Assembly (NCBI GenBank): GCA_905212085.1
Contig: CAJMDF010000001.1
Location: forward strand, 16,912 to 80,911
Reading direction: 5' to 3'
DNA: 64,000 nucleotides
Source of the DNA: an uncultured Clostridium sp.
GTDB taxonomy: Bacteria; Cyanobacteriota; Vampirovibrionia; Gastranaerophilales; Gastranaerophilaceae
Made by a program: the position numbers and the translations under genes. Under the pieces are notes generated by a model. The model was not told where the DNA came from. It did no database searches and worked only from the letters and a program-made list of their open reading frames with translations. This document shows, in pieces, positions 29,568 to 53,585 of this stretch; within the stretch, counting starts at the first letter, position 1, and the number at the start of each line of letters is the position of its first letter.

Positions 29568-30086
29568 ATGGCAAATTTATCAATCCCATCTATTCGTGAA
29601 AGACTTTTTAATACAAGTAAGCACGAAACAAACACTCAAAGAAATTCAAATTCAACAAATCCTTTTGCAGCATCTTCTTTCAAAGGAAATGTATTAACTG
29701 CAGATGTGTTTGAATCTTCTAACAAAAAAAATGACAACAATATTAGCTTTACAGGAAAGTTAAAAGCTAGTGCGTTGGTAGGCTCAATTTCTGGTATCGG
29801 TGAAAGATTCCATAATATGATTGAATCTGCAAAAGCTTTTGGCAACAGAATGAAAGATAGCATCGTAAATGGCTGGAATAAGTTAAATGAAGTTGAAATT
29901 TCTTTCGCTCCTGCTAAGGAAAAGGCTATTTCTATGTTTAATTCTGTTAAGGAAACATTAGGAACCTCTGTTACTGATTTGATCTCGTCAGGAGTATCTG
30001 CTAAATCAGTTTCAAAAATGGAAGATATGACAGCAGCTAGACAATTAGCAACTGATAAAATTGCGCTATGGGAAGCTTCTGTATAA
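29568..30086 (+). CDS. Hypothetical protein (172 aa)
   Basis: RBS AAAGGA. Co-oriented with the next ORF. The overlapping minus-strand ORF is judged a shadow. Confidence 0.4.
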   Translation: MANLSIPSIRERLFNTSKHETNTQRNSNSTNPFAASSFKGNVLTADVFESSNKKNDNNISFTGKLKASALVGSISGIGERFHNMIESAKAFGNRMKDSIVNGWNKLNEVEISFAPAKEKAISMFNSVKETLGTSVTDLISSGVSAKSVSKMEDMTAARQLATDKIALWEASV

Positions 30087-30105
30087 GTAGGAGGAGAGAA
30101 AGTAA

Positions 30106-30477
30106 ATGGTAGATAAAAAAATAGTAAAAGATGTTGCAAATATAATTGAAGGATTAGGACTTAATCAAAATCCTGAAACAATTTCTATTCTAGAAGATGT
30201 TGGTACAAATTCTAAAATAGATGCAATTAGAGAAATGACTGCTCGTGCATTAGTAAAGAAGAATATGCATGATTCTTTGAAAGTAGTTATTACTAACAAA
30301 GGAAAAGGTATAAATGATATGTCAACAGTTGTTGCAATGAGCACAATTAATGAACTCTTATCATTAAATGACAAGTCAGAAGCTATGAAAATATTAGAAG
30401 ATACAGTAAATGATCATTCTGATGAGGAAGTAAGAGACAACGCGCGTTCAGTGAAAGCTTTAATGGCACTTTCATAA
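30106..30477 (+). CDS. Hypothetical protein (123 aa)
   Basis: Strong RBS GGAGGAGAG. Confidence 0.45.
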   Translation: MVDKKIVKDVANIIEGLGLNQNPETISILEDVGTNSKIDAIREMTARALVKKNMHDSLKVVITNKGKGINDMSTVVAMSTINELLSLNDKSEAMKILEDTVNDHSDEEVRDNARSVKALMALS

Positions 30478-30618: not shown

Positions 30619-30720
30619 ATGAAAAGATTTGAAGTCGAGCAGGTACAAAAGTCATACAAATTTGCAGATAATTGTGTAAAAGTGTCTACCTGCCAAGCAG
30701 TCGGGGGGGGGGCAGTTTAA
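30619..30720 (+). CDS. Upstream leader ORF (33 codons, MKRFEVEQVQKSYKFADNCVKVSTCQAVGGGAV). It ends 2 codons after the G tract. One extra G would fuse it to the pilin-like body
   Basis: ATG with RBS AAAGGAGC. Homologous leader at 52640. Frame relationship read directly from the sequence. Confidence 0.45.
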   Translation: MKRFEVEQVQKSYKFADNCVKVSTCQAVGGGAV

Positions 30721-31511
30721 AGCTTGTTACAAAAGCCTTTCATGGGTTATGTAAAAATTTACTATCGGATCAATCAGTACGATTTGGATTTACTTTAGCG
30801 GAAGTATTAATAACTATAGGCATAATAGGTATAGTTGCTGCAATGACTTTACCTTCTCTTATTTCAAATTATAGAAAAAAGCAATATGTCTCTCAATTAA
30901 AGGTTGCTTATTCTTTATTATATAGTATGTCTAGAGACATAATGTCAGAGTCAGATACAACCAGTTGGAAAGATACTTTATTAATATCTGAATTAAAAGA
31001 AAATTTAGGTGATATTGGAAATAGTAATTGGTCATCTCAAGTAAAAAAGCCTGAATATAAAGATATTGTGTATAAGTATCTAAATAAATCTATGAAAATA
31101 GTTCAAGTATCCACATGCAATGGTGATGAGTGTGATTATTCTTATTTGAATGTCCCATCTCAAAAAGGTTCTCATTCCGGTTTGTATTTATTTAAGTTAG
31201 CAAATGGTATTGTTATGGAATTTAGATTTTTTACAGAGGAAAATAGCTCAAATATGGGGTATGTTAATGTTGATGTAAATGGATTTAAAAGACCAAATCA
31301 ATTGGGGCGAGATATATTTCAATTTTATTTTTGGGATGATGGTTCTGTAGTTCCTTGTGGGGCTCAAGCCTTAGCAGTAAAATCGACTCAAAAACAAGAC
31401 TATTGGAGGGAAGATAATTCTTATGCTTGGTCTAATTGCTCTGTGTCAAAGACTTCTTATGGACAAGGCTGTACAGGTAGAGTTTTAGAAGAAGATGCTA
31501 TGTTATATTAA
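30672..31511 (+). CDS. Prepilin-type (type IV pilin/pseudopilin-like) Cys-rich exported protein, locus 1. The called ORF begins at a TTG with no SD
   Basis: G|FTLAEVLITIGIIGIVAAMTLPSL prepilin N-terminal methylation-type motif. C-terminal Cys pairs. Paralog of 52693..53547. Confidence 0.6.
   Translation: MCKSVYLPSSRGGGSLKLVTKAFHGLCKNLLSDQSVRFGFTLAEVLITIGIIGIVAAMTLPSLISNYRKKQYVSQLKVAYSLLYSMSRDIMSESDTTSWKDTLLISELKENLGDIGNSNWSSQVKKPEYKDIVYKYLNKSMKIVQVSTCNGDECDYSYLNVPSQKGSHSGLYLFKLANGIVMEFRFFTEENSSNMGYVNVDVNGFKRPNQLGRDIFQFYFWDDGSVVPCGAQALAVKSTQKQDYWREDNSYAWSNCSVSKTSYGQGCTGRVLEEDAMLY
30703..30712 (+). repeat. Homopolymeric G10 tract (candidate slipped-strand phase-variation switch)
   Basis: Ten consecutive G (count implied by the ORF-track translation RGGGS) in an approximately 30% GC genome. 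Same tract and context in the paralog at 52724. Confidence 0.7.
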
Positions 31512-31553
31512 TAAGATATTCTATATTTTATAATTTTTATCTAATAATATTCT

Positions 31554-31583
31554 AAAAAAGGCTCCTTTTTAGGAGCCTTTTTT
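31554..31583. terminator. Bidirectional intrinsic terminator (aaaaaggctcc...ggagcctttttt)
   Basis: A-run, hairpin, T-run. Between convergent genes. Confidence 0.7.
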
Positions 31584-31586
31584 AGT

Positions 31587-50969: not shown

Positions 50970-52598
50970 ATGGATTTTAAAAATAAATTACAAATAATAT
51001 TAGGGGATATACTAGGCGGGCTGAACGCTGCGATAATTACTTTGCCACAGGCTCTTGCTTTTGGTGTAGCTACAGGATTTGGTGCAAGTGCTGGAATTTG
51101 GGGTGCTATAATTTTATCAGTTATCGCTGGTGTTTTAGGAACTAAAATTCCTATGATTTCAGGAGTTACTGGACCTGTTGCTATTGTTGTAGCTTCAATA
51201 ATGCATGCGTTGAATAAAGATATTTCATCTGTTATTTTTATTATATTTTTGGCTGGGATTATTCAAGTATTGTTATCTTTAACTAAACTGCCTGAAATTG
51301 TTAAATATGTGCCTTACCCTGTGATTTCCGGTTTTATGAACGGAGTAGGTTTAATTATCATAATTATGCAGTTAAATCCTTTGTTAGGAATTGCTCCATG
51401 TTCAAATACTATTGAAAGTTTGGAAATGATATTTAAATCTTTCAGCAATTTAAATTTACAGGCTTTTTCCATAGGGTTATTAACTCTTCTGATTGTATTT
51501 TTATTTCCAAAGAAGTGGAATAAATATGTTCCATCTCAAATTTTAGCATTAATAATTTGTACTATTATTTCAATAAAAATGGGCTTGAATATTGAAAAGA
51601 TTTCGGAAATTTCTGTATCTTTGCCTGCAATTCAATTGCCTCATACAAATTTGCATGATTTAATTACTTATTTTCAATATTCTATAACTTTAGCTGTAAT
51701 TTTATCATCAGAAAGTTTATTAACAGGGCTTGTGTGCACATCTATTACAAAAGTACAATTACCGCCCAAGAGTTTATTATCATCTCAGGGAATAGGGAAT
51801 ATATGTTGTGCTTTGACTGGGACTTTACCCGGTTCAGCAGCGACTATGAGAACAGTTGCAGCTTTAAAGACTGGTGCATCTACAAAATTAGCTGCAGTGG
51901 TAACTTCTTTGGTATTAGTTTTATTAATTTATAAATTTTCAGGATTTGTTGCTGAAATTCCACTAGCTGTACTTGCAGGAATTTTGATAAAAATAGGCTA
52001 TGATATAATTGATACTAAATTTTTGCGTGTTATAAAATTGGCGCCAAAAGATGATTTGTATGTGCTTATTCTTGTTTTCTTATTAACTGTATTTTATAAC
52101 TTAATTGTTGCTGTAGGTGCAGGAATTACTCTTGCAGCACTTTTATATGCCAAAAGAGCTGCAGATAAAGCAAAACTTGTCAATAAAGAAGTTTATGATA
52201 AAGATATTATAAAGTTAGAAAGAGTTTTAGAGAAGGATTACAGGCATAAAATTCGTGTTGTGCATATAAACGGGGCGTTTTTCTTCGGCTCTGCAACTCA
52301 ATTAATTTCTCAGTTTGATGAGTTTTTGGGAACGAGATATTTGATATTGGTGTATGATAGTGATGATTTATTGGATATTTCAGCTATTTTTGCACTTGAA
52401 GATATTATTTTACGCTTAAAATCCCAACATATAAAAATATTGATGGTAATTAATAATGAAGATGTTAATAAACAATTGGAGCAATACAAAATATCAGAAC
52501 AAATTGGGGAAGATAAAATATTTTTCTCAGAGATTGAAGCAATTGAATTTGCCAAATTATCTTTTAAAAATCGCATAAAGAAAAAGTATTTTGGTTAA
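50970..52598 (+). CDS. SulP family anion transporter with a C-terminal STAS domain
   Basis: About 11 TM helices plus STAS. Confidence 0.85.
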   Translation: MDFKNKLQIILGDILGGLNAAIITLPQALAFGVATGFGASAGIWGAIILSVIAGVLGTKIPMISGVTGPVAIVVASIMHALNKDISSVIFIIFLAGIIQVLLSLTKLPEIVKYVPYPVISGFMNGVGLIIIIMQLNPLLGIAPCSNTIESLEMIFKSFSNLNLQAFSIGLLTLLIVFLFPKKWNKYVPSQILALIICTIISIKMGLNIEKISEISVSLPAIQLPHTNLHDLITYFQYSITLAVILSSESLLTGLVCTSITKVQLPPKSLLSSQGIGNICCALTGTLPGSAATMRTVAALKTGASTKLAAVVTSLVLVLLIYKFSGFVAEIPLAVLAGILIKIGYDIIDTKFLRVIKLAPKDDLYVLILVFLLTVFYNLIVAVGAGITLAALLYAKRAADKAKLVNKEVYDKDIIKLERVLEKDYRHKIRVVHINGAFFFGSATQLISQFDEFLGTRYLILVYDSDDLLDISAIFALEDIILRLKSQHIKILMVINNEDVNKQLEQYKISEQIGEDKIFFSEIEAIEFAKLSFKNRIKKKYFG

Positions 52599-52603
52599 AA
52601 ATA

Positions 52604-52612
52604 TGTTATAAT
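52604..52612 (+). promoter_or_regulatory. Extended -10 element (TGnTATAAT) for prepilin-type locus 2
   Basis: TGTTATAAT is 27 nt upstream of the leader ATG. Confidence 0.4.
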
Positions 52613-52639
52613 AATATATAAAAAGGAAAGGAGCTGTAT

Positions 52640-52741
52640 ATGAAAAGATTTCAGGTAGAACATACACAAAAATCTTGCAAATTATACGATAATTGTGTTG
52701 GATTACCTACGCACGTAGTGCTCGGGGGGGGGGCAATTTAA
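52640..52741 (+). CDS. Upstream leader ORF (33 codons, MKRFQVEHTQKSCKLYDNCVGLPTHVVLGGGAI), homologous to 30619..30720. One extra G would fuse it to the pilin-like body
   Basis: RBS GGAAAGGAG. Frames checked: ATG frame differs by +1 from the TTG/pilin frame, and G11 joins them. Confidence 0.45.
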   Translation: MKRFQVEHTQKSCKLYDNCVGLPTHVVLGGGAI

Positions 52742-53547
52742 AGCTTGCAGGACAAGGCTTCCAAGGAGTTGAAAAAGTAAATAAAAAATGCTATATTAGT
52801 GATATGTTACATCACGATAAAAATAAAAAAGCATTTACCTTAGCAGAGGTTTTAATAACTTTAGGTGTAATTGGTATTGTTGCAGCAATGACAATGCCAT
52901 CTTTAATTTCAAAGTATAATGAAAAGGCTTGGTTGACTGCATTTAAACGCTCTTATACTATTTTGAATCAAGCTTACCTAAGAGTTTATGAAGATATTGG
53001 AATATCTAAAAATTGGTGTGATAAAAAAAATGCAGAATGTTCTCAAGTTTATTTTAATTTGTTATCACCATATTTAAGTATTTCAGAAGTTTGGGGAAAT
53101 AATCTCCCTCAGCATTTGAAAAGAATAAAATATCGAGATTTAGATGGATCTGCTTTTAGTTTATTTAGTAATTATTATTGGTTTGTCTTAAATGATGGTG
53201 CTTTTGCTGGAATATCATATGATTCAGAGTATAATATGCCATTATTGTTAGTGGATACAAATGGTAGTAAGAGGCCTAATCAATTTGGAAAGGATTTGTT
53301 TTTTATAACTTTAAATAATCGAGATGATTCTCCTGTTCTTTCAGGATATTCAAAATGGTGGTTGTATGATGGGGTATTTTGTTCTACAACAAATTCCTCA
53401 GGTGCTTGGTATAGAGGTGGAGGTTGTTCTCTATGGGTAATTGCTACGGGTAATATGGATTATTTACATAGACAAATTACTTTAGATGAATGGAAAAAGA
53501 ACATTAAAAAGTTATTAGTAAAATCAGGGGCCAGTTCGTTAAATTAA
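52693..53547 (+). CDS. Prepilin-type Cys-rich exported protein, locus 2. Alternative short-leader start at ATG 52804 (MLHHDKNKKA|FTLAEV)
   Basis: A|FTLAEVLITLGVIGIVAAMTMPSL prepilin motif. Paralog of locus 1. Confidence 0.6.
   Translation: MCWITYARSARGGGNLKLAGQGFQGVEKVNKKCYISDMLHHDKNKKAFTLAEVLITLGVIGIVAAMTMPSLISKYNEKAWLTAFKRSYTILNQAYLRVYEDIGISKNWCDKKNAECSQVYFNLLSPYLSISEVWGNNLPQHLKRIKYRDLDGSAFSLFSNYYWFVLNDGAFAGISYDSEYNMPLLLVDTNGSKRPNQFGKDLFFITLNNRDDSPVLSGYSKWWLYDGVFCSTTNSSGAWYRGGGCSLWVIATGNMDYLHRQITLDEWKKNIKKLLVKSGASSLN
52724..52733 (+). repeat. Homopolymeric G10 tract (candidate phase-variation switch), locus 2
   Basis: Ten consecutive G. Same position as in locus 1. Confidence 0.75.
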
Positions 53548-53585
53548 AAAAAATATAACCCGTAATAAACGGGTTATATTTTTTA
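53548..53585. terminator. Bidirectional intrinsic terminator (ataacccg...cgggttat plus T-run)
   Basis: A-run, hairpin, T-run. Between convergent genes. Confidence 0.7.

Follow-up and report, generated by a model that had tools for sequence, protein, structure and literature searches.

The 64-kb stretch of Gastranaerophilales DNA analysed here (the window; coordinates are those of the whole stretch) contains two prepilin-type genes about 22 kb apart, locus 1 and locus 2, in each of which a run of ten G residues (G10) lies between the translation start and the prepilin cleavage site. We propose that these genes are probably governed by slipped-strand phase variation in a cleavable leader and are mostly OFF. 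Specifically, each locus would be a stand-alone gene for a type IV pilin-like (prepilin-type, DUF6613) protein, the translation of which would begin at a strong Shine-Dalgarno (SD) sequence and ATG far upstream of the prepilin cleavage site. Replication slippage would alter the hypermutable G10 run by one nucleotide (nt) in either direction. With G11 (or G8), the ribosome would read MKRF... through the tract and a spacer into ...[A/G]↓FTLAEV (the arrow marks the cleavage site throughout), and with G10 or G9 it would meet a stop a few codons past the tract, leaving no pilin from the SD-led start. Because prepilin peptidase should remove the leader, the Gly or Pro run and the variable spacer would never be present in the mature protein. 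Within populations, such switching would be reversible and frequent. Both window loci, and most natural populations, are in the OFF state, one nt short. The mechanism is a known one; the lineage, the setting and the layout are new.

The anatomy of the two loci is closely matched, with all coding and promoter features on the + strand. At locus 2, promoter P1, as read from the sequence, has an extended −10 element TGTTATAAT with a weak −35 (52604-52612) and aligns with the locus 1 promoter. A Shine-Dalgarno GGAG (52630-52633, also read from the sequence) lies 6 nt 5′ of the leader ATG, within a block, GAAAGGAGC, that is kept in orthologues L084-L087, L029 and L004. The leader open reading frame (ORF) in its G10 state occupies 52640-52741, from ATG 52640 to TAA 52739-52741, and its OFF product of 33 amino acids (aa), MKRF...GGGAI, translates as MKRFQVEHTQKSCKLYDNCVGLPTHVVLGGGAI followed by the stop. 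The G10 tract, which is the proposed switch, was placed at 52724-52733 by a homopolymer scan and frame simulation; it starts at leader codon 29, i.e. about 28 codons in. A translated spacer follows (52734-52833), in which frame simulation finds the pilin frame open as far as the A↓F cleavage site, and then the mature pilin-like protein, FTLAEVLITLG... plus the DUF6613 globular part (52834-53547, including the stop codon). This downstream ORF, which carries KKA↓FTLAEVLITLG, is in the −1 frame relative to the leader. At locus 1, promoter P1 (30558-30586) is TTGAAA-17-TATAAT with a TG, giving 11/12 matches in a promoter scan. It precedes a leader ORF that is likewise 33 aa long in the G10 state (30619-30720; ATG 30619, stop 30718-30720) and is also called in L082 and L083, a G10 tract at 30703-30712 (homopolymer scan and frame simulation), and the spacer plus pilin-like coding region (30713-31511), which contains RFG↓FTLAEV with G↓F cleavage at 30786/30789. 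Both leader ORFs have a strong Shine-Dalgarno sequence, and both are one nt short of the frame of the prepilin-type gene.

An earlier interpretation made from the letters of this DNA (the sequence-only reading) had located the ATG, the G10 tract, the stop and an in-frame internal ATG (52804) of locus 2 exactly where we find them, and had ascribed the same leader, tract and out-of-frame state to the paralogue at locus 1, which our annotation bears out. It had also aligned the two loci in blocks; over their 5′ regions the column identity is 77%, the named blocks included. Several of the differences between loci 1 and 2 are synonymous in the leader frame before the tract (gtc/gta, gag/gaa, aag/aaa, tca/tct and acc/acg) and in the pilin frame after it. 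The synonymous differences between the two window leaders thus indicate that the leader is translated.

Frame simulation at both loci agrees with the earlier claim that G11 joins leader and pilin: G11 or G8 yields a fused protein of 302 aa at locus 2 and 297 aa at locus 1, and G9, G10, G12 and G13 end translation after 33-45 codons at both. A change in repeat number thus toggles between a full-length and a shortened product, as expected of a contingency locus. The other hallmark of such loci, a homopolymer in the 5′ coding part that is over-represented for the base composition, is present as well. Only two G runs of at least 8 nt occur in the 64 kb, both in pilin leaders, and the six overlapping G 8-mer matches that they provide compare with 0.06 expected, a number reached in 0/100 shuffles.

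Repeat number also differs among related strains at the same locus, G10 being by far the commonest state. The syntenic locus 2 orthologues L085 and L086 (SulP-pilin-PGM) have G11 and are in frame, as is the syntenic locus 1 orthologue L087 (MazG-172aa-123aa-pilin-aminotransferase), again with G11. Two further contigs found via the flanking genes, L082 and L083, are G10. A third locus is G11 in L084 and G10 in L029; its ON protein occurs on 3 contigs and its 33-aa OFF leader on 36. The 90%-identity clusters of both window proteins include shortened calls and full fused forms, such as P0140 (313 aa, fused) in the locus 2 cluster and P0127 (316 aa, fused) in the locus 1 cluster. Additionally, the G9-state leader products P0170 and P0173 share a 90% cluster with the window's locus 2 leader, and the exact 33-aa G10 leader peptide of locus 2 is called on 29 contigs in public assemblies. 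A protein search with the leader alone gave one match of 42 aa, too little for counting ON against OFF forms. The exact G9, G11, G12 and G13 products of the window alleles were absent from the protein collection searched, which held near-identical G9-state variants only. Tract length is therefore not invariant across strains, the outcome that the sequence-only reading had named as fatal to its proposal: G9, G10 and G11 alleles all exist at orthologous loci.

These alleles bear directly on the suspicion that G10 is a sequencing or assembly error of a true G11, or that the genes are pseudogenes, which we regard as extremely improbable. Long G runs are error-prone, and two contigs from Logan assemblies of other samples stop at the tracts or close to them, L081 60 nt short of the tract of locus 2 and L083 7 nt past that of locus 1; such breaks are compatible with length heterogeneity or with a drop in poly-G coverage. 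However, independent assemblies made with MEGAHIT, SPAdes and IDBA give G8 to G13, including G11 and G12, with no cap at 10, and the frame state follows the locus rather than the length. The coding regions, moreover, are intact and conserved, without other frameshifts or stops. The argument for a selected switch shared by the two loci, as opposed to an artefact, is thus strengthened by the G11 alleles at both syntenic orthologues, by the G9 alleles and by the recurrence of the design in dozens of paralogues across the order. For annotation there is a practical consequence: gene callers split or shorten these genes, reporting products of 219, 247, 249, 284 and 294 aa for one locus and 33-aa ORFs on dozens of contigs.

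The family-wide survey comprised 160 loci picked by the conserved mature pilin N-terminus, a selection blind to tract state, and a tract was defined as seven or more consecutive Gs, or Cs, in the 330 nt that precede the cleavage site. Among 147 usable pilin-like genes, 61 (about 40%) carry a tract in the leader, and 43 of the 61 tracts measure 10 nt. G or C runs of at least 8 nt are concentrated there: in 423 kb of about 30% GC (guanine plus cytosine), 69/77 fall within 330 nt upstream of a pilin cleavage motif. Between tract and cleavage site, the pilin frame is open in 61/63 loci, compared with 4/63 and 6/63 for the two alternative frames; among loci with a spacer of 60 nt or more, the pilin frame is open in 37/39 and each of the alternatives in 0. 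Selection thus keeps the tract-to-pilin frame open across the family, which is the strongest evidence that a fused long-leader protein is a real, if predicted, product. C tracts give PPP in the leader where G tracts give GGG; from this interchangeability we argue that selection acts on the DNA run and not on the peptide. A second type of switch module, with C10 and a leader of the form ..ALR[VI]APPP.., is seen in L006, L007, L011, L025, L043, L051, L096, L118, L123 and L129, and its flanks, TTG-C10-G, are the reverse complement of the typical G-tract flanks, C-G10-CAA. In L033, two tandem near-identical pilin-like genes each have an in-frame G10 (1476-1486 and 2392-2402) just 17 nt upstream of the cleavage site (MYRFNFNHGGGASSRLKA↓FTLAEV); here the switch comes with a short leader and is ON.

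The spacers between tract and cleavage site are heterogeneous and mosaic at orthologous positions. They may consist of a promoter-like cassette (as in the window), of a repeat-element-like cassette (P0001, L085, L087, L004) or of almost nothing (L088, P0002). The spacer looks like translated filler whose sole apparent constraint is to stay open, which fits its predicted removal by prepilin peptidase. The alternative cassette, encoding RRYSHSEGEYPKESS..LLRQKSRNDRFG (L085:1596-1740, L087:1596-1745, L004:1380-1510), resembles a translated inverted repeat of the repetitive extragenic palindrome or miniature inverted-repeat transposable element (REP/MITE) kind (GTCATTCTGAG...CGAAATGAC) and holds an internal AGGA+TTG start chosen by gene callers; spacers are swapped between strains at one locus. 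In many paralogues, a decoy copy of the N-terminal motif (AAFTLAEGATHVAH.D..RRA) stands in frame directly upstream of the real AFTLAEVLITLG, about 60-90 nt before the true N-terminus (L024, L032, L046, L056, L057, L067, L068, L079; also P0023); recombination may have left it there as a scar, or it may be a repeat element.

Locus 2 has, within its spacer, the in-frame ATG 52804, which would give the short leader MLHHDKNKKA↓FTLAEV. This ATG stands 6 nt after TGCTATATT (52789-52797); TTGAAA lies 17 nt farther upstream (52769-52774). The ATG has no Shine-Dalgarno sequence, and on a long transcript it would be a poor internal start. The whole element, TTGAAA-N17-TGCTATATT-AGTGAT-ATG, forms an embedded promoter-like cassette, P2 (52769-52806; promoter scan, 10/12 matches plus TG). 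The general form of the cassette, TTGAAA/TTTACA-N17-TG(Y)TATAAT-AGTGAT-ATG-nnn-CAT-CAC, was found in 17 loci, among them L005, L019, L043, L055, L089, L091, L092, L118, L128, L022 and L161. Hardly any variation is seen at T1, A2 and T6 of its −10, whereas the amino acid encoded there can be N, T, I, H, Y or D, so the constraint lies on the DNA and not on the peptide. L022 and L161, two paralogues that have no tract, carry the cassette as non-coding DNA in front of an ordinary short-leader gene with SD and ATG. The conserved leader peptide GVEKxNKKCY[NIT]SDM (EKxNKKCY[NIT]SDMxHH) is accordingly best read as a consensus sigma-70 promoter that would be translated when the tract is in frame. P2 may yield a leaderless mRNA from the AUG of MLHHDKNKKA↓FTLAEV, independently of the tract, probably weakly and at locus 2 only. 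P2 is dispensable, being absent from locus 1 and from several locus 2 orthologues.

This start gave rise to the suggestion, made in the sequence-only reading, that the tract toggles a small upstream ORF (uORF) and thereby controls a separate start at ATG 52804. Such a device, in which the tract would set the length or the stop of the uORF, would resemble the attenuator of Streptococcus gallolyticus Pil1. The in-frame position of ATG 52804, its canonical 10-residue prepilin leader and its place 6 nt after a conserved consensus promoter (TTGAAA-17-TGCTATATT) are in keeping with such a device, as is the precedent of a phase-variable leader peptide upstream of pilus genes (PMC3894217). The comparison of loci, however, speaks against it, and we consider it very unlikely. 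Locus 1 has no in-frame ATG, GTG or TTG anywhere from its tract to its cleavage site, and locus 2 orthologues have either unrelated sequence in place of the cassette (P0001, L085) or a tract only 22 nt from the cleavage site (L088, P0002). No hairpin of the terminator type lies between leader stop and pilin (52741-52831 at locus 2, 30720-30786 at locus 1), and ATG 52804, as noted, lacks a Shine-Dalgarno sequence. A uORF device has no need of the pilin frame that stays open after the tract in nearly all loci. This part of the earlier proposal is thus not supported.

The frame states across the family show a strong bias. Of the 58 loci that could be classified, 42 lack one nt, 10 have one nt too many and 6 are in frame (chi-square against equal thirds, p about 2e-9; binomial for short versus long, p about 1e-5), and the one-short loci span the absolute lengths G8, G9, G10, G12 and C10. 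Where 11 is the in-frame length (the ON=11 class), the run is 10 nt long in 36/43 loci; the ON=10 class is spread symmetrically, with G9 four times, G10 three times, G11 four times and G12 once, and the lengths of the two classes differ (Fisher p 2.5e-4). This length pattern fits a mutational equilibrium near 10 plus avoidance of the ON length, and not a need for the −1 state. The one-short excess could be taken as evidence for recoding and for a selected one-short state, but once the loci are split by in-frame length, most of it can be ascribed to a favoured length of 10 and to avoidance of the length that is in frame.

The one-short state is also the one from which programmed recoding could restore the pilin frame. 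Under that explanation, G10 would be functional, with a fixed fraction of full-length protein made by −1 frameshifting on G GGG GGG or by insertion of a G by RNA polymerase (RNAP), and the DNA-level G11 alleles would be rare over-expressing variants. The step from leader to pilin is exactly a −1 shift, 42 of the 58 classifiable loci are one short whatever their absolute length, the locus 2 consensus is G10 on its 29 contigs, and transcriptional slippage at homopolymers mostly inserts single nucleotides, the direction needed (PMC5574713). The slippery heptamer pattern X XXY YYZ is matched by G GGG GGG in the leader frame, trivially so for any G run. Several observations nevertheless make recoding unlikely as the main explanation. 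The out-of-frame arrangement is not fixed across homologues, since 6 loci are in frame and 10 one nt long, with G11 and G9 alleles at the same loci, and in the ON=10 class the OFF states are symmetric. Folds of the 67 nt after the tract at five loci gave z-scores from −0.37 to +0.69, revealing no stable structure that might stimulate frameshifting, and the post-tract spacers are unrelated between subfamilies. Furthermore, the slippage insertions described in E. coli and Buchnera were all in A/T runs and none in G/C runs, in genomes without long G runs (PMC5574713). Recoding may make a minor contribution.

A fuller version of this idea would take the length one short of the in-frame length as a selected, family-wide set-point, at which −1 decoding provides low fixed expression of dozens of pilin-like genes per genome, with DNA slippage as a slower second layer and the embedded promoter as a third route at some loci, including locus 2. 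We think it unlikely. As a separate matter, the conserved TTTAAAGCTTG...CAAGGCTT block that follows the tract might fold into a hairpin that stimulates frameshifting; this was rejected, as the hairpin is no more stable than shuffles and is missing in other leader subfamilies. A whole-window Rfam scan at the gathering threshold returned no match, so the conserved blocks are not explained by a known RNA element.

Returning to slipped-strand phase variation, which we favour, a number of points weigh against it. The evidence consists of assembled sequences, so that switching within a population, and its rate, would have to be deduced from them. The consensus state is very stable: at each of two loci, in-frame alleles are a small minority of 2-3 contigs, as opposed to about 35. 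Neisseria pilC tracts range from G9 to G15 among six strains (PMC5320596), and tract lengths here, in contrast to this wide spread, are tightly clustered at 10. The excess of one-short over one-long loci (42 versus 10) demands an extra assumption, namely a length equilibrium near 10 together with selection against ON. For a prepilin, a leader of 59-63 aa is unusually long, and that it is processed is a prediction. Lastly, the embedded promoter may provide tract-independent expression at locus 2.

The two encoded proteins score 26.6 and 21.5 bits with PF07963 (cutoff 21.2) and 21.3 and 21.9 with TIGR02532 (cutoff 16.3), both have the [G/A]↓F-x-x-x-E motif followed by a hydrophobic helix, and DUF6613 (PF20318) was found in homologues. 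The putative function is at the surface or in a pilus. Counted from the SD-led ATG, the leader has 64 aa (locus 2) or 56 aa (locus 1), in either case more than the short basic leaders of prepilins (about 5-30 aa); the 10-aa leader is obtained only from the internal ATG 52804 of locus 2, and tract-free paralogues have leaders of 4-8 aa. Related loci come almost all from metagenome-assembled genomes (MAGs) of Candidatus Gastranaerophilales (Melainabacteria/Vampirovibrionia) and from gut metagenomes.

Loci 1 and 2 are the sole prepilin-type genes in the window, and both bear tracts. Each is a monocistronic orphan with its own promoter and terminator among housekeeping genes. Locus 2 lies between a SulP transporter gene and a PGM-like gene and ends at a bidirectional terminator hairpin (53548-53584; terminator scan, no strand assigned) that closes the monocistronic unit. 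Locus 1 has MazG plus two small ORFs on one side and an aminotransferase gene on the other, and its terminator hairpin, from the same scan and likewise unstranded, is at 31552-31585. No pilus machinery was found among the ten large window ORFs tested, which are housekeeping genes, and the immediate neighbours are unrelated to pili. For the two small ORFs upstream of locus 1 (29568-30477; 172 aa and 123 aa), no Pfam match is recorded; they keep synteny with the pilin gene in L082, L083 and L087. Within locus 2, a terminator-like hairpin with a T-rich tail was flagged at 52872-52899, inside the coding region of the conserved hydrophobic helix (GIVAAMTMPSLIS); coding constraints probably explain it.

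The biology of Gastranaerophilales, an uncultured group of common gut bacteria related to Cyanobacteria, is known only from MAGs, and full-text literature searches returned no report of repeat-mediated phase variation in Melainabacteria/Gastranaerophilales. The pilin-like family has hundreds of matches in species-representative genomes. If our interpretation is right, surface diversity in these gut commensals arises from a large set of pilin-like genes, each switching independently of the others, a repertoire comparable to that of Neisseria or Campylobacter and probably relevant to interactions with immunoglobulin A (IgA), phage or host surfaces. The switch would lie in a segment later removed from the protein, with translation passing through a former promoter or repeat element; such a design could be sought in other families with class III signal peptides.

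Among known systems, Campylobacter jejuni is close in tract type and genome composition: in its genome of about 30% GC, G8-G11 runs are strongly over-represented in coding regions for surface structures and have a narrow modal length. Its poly-G targets are mainly glycosylation, capsule and lipooligosaccharide (LOS) genes, and the tracts there, unlike those described here, are not limited to one protein family or to a cleavable leader. The Neisseria opa genes have CTTCT pentamer repeats in the 5′ coding region, at 11-12 loci per genome (PMC5320596). The multiplicity of that family resembles that of the pilin-like family here. The opa repeats lie in the part that encodes the signal peptide and are removed from the mature protein. 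The opa system differs, however, in that a pentanucleotide repeat controls outer-membrane proteins, whereas here a homopolymer precedes pilin-like proteins.

Translational phase variation by poly-G is documented for pilC1 and pilC2 of Neisseria gonorrhoeae and N. meningitidis (Jonsson et al. 1991, tabulated in PMC5320596). As proposed here, a frame shift of one nt in either direction switches the protein, and paralogous copies each have their own tract. PilC, however, is a Sec-exported pilus-associated protein and not a prepilin, whereas the tract here is placed in a class III (prepilin) leader extended to 25-115 aa, a design that recurs across a very large paralogous family. Programmed −1 frameshifting and transcriptional slippage, as in dnaX and insertion sequence (IS) elements, share with the present loci the joining of overlapping frames at a slippery homopolymer and a commonest state that is one nt short; the present loci differ in having no stimulatory structure, in showing all three frame states and in having in-frame DNA alleles, and RNAP slippage is documented at A/T runs (PMC5574713).

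For the uORF explanation, the nearest precedent is S. gallolyticus Pil1, where a leader peptide with a GCAGA repeat acts through attenuation (PMC3894217). The two share a short leader ORF with a slippage-prone repeat upstream of pilus genes, expression there being stochastic in the population; that system relies on a terminator plus a separate start for the structural gene, whereas the loci here have no terminator and would form a translational fusion when in frame. Taken together, what is distinctive here is a prepilin leader of 25-115 aa, the use of both G and C runs, lengths tightly clustered at 10 with a strongly OFF-biased consensus, and the confinement of this design to one very large pilin-like family in an uncultured lineage.

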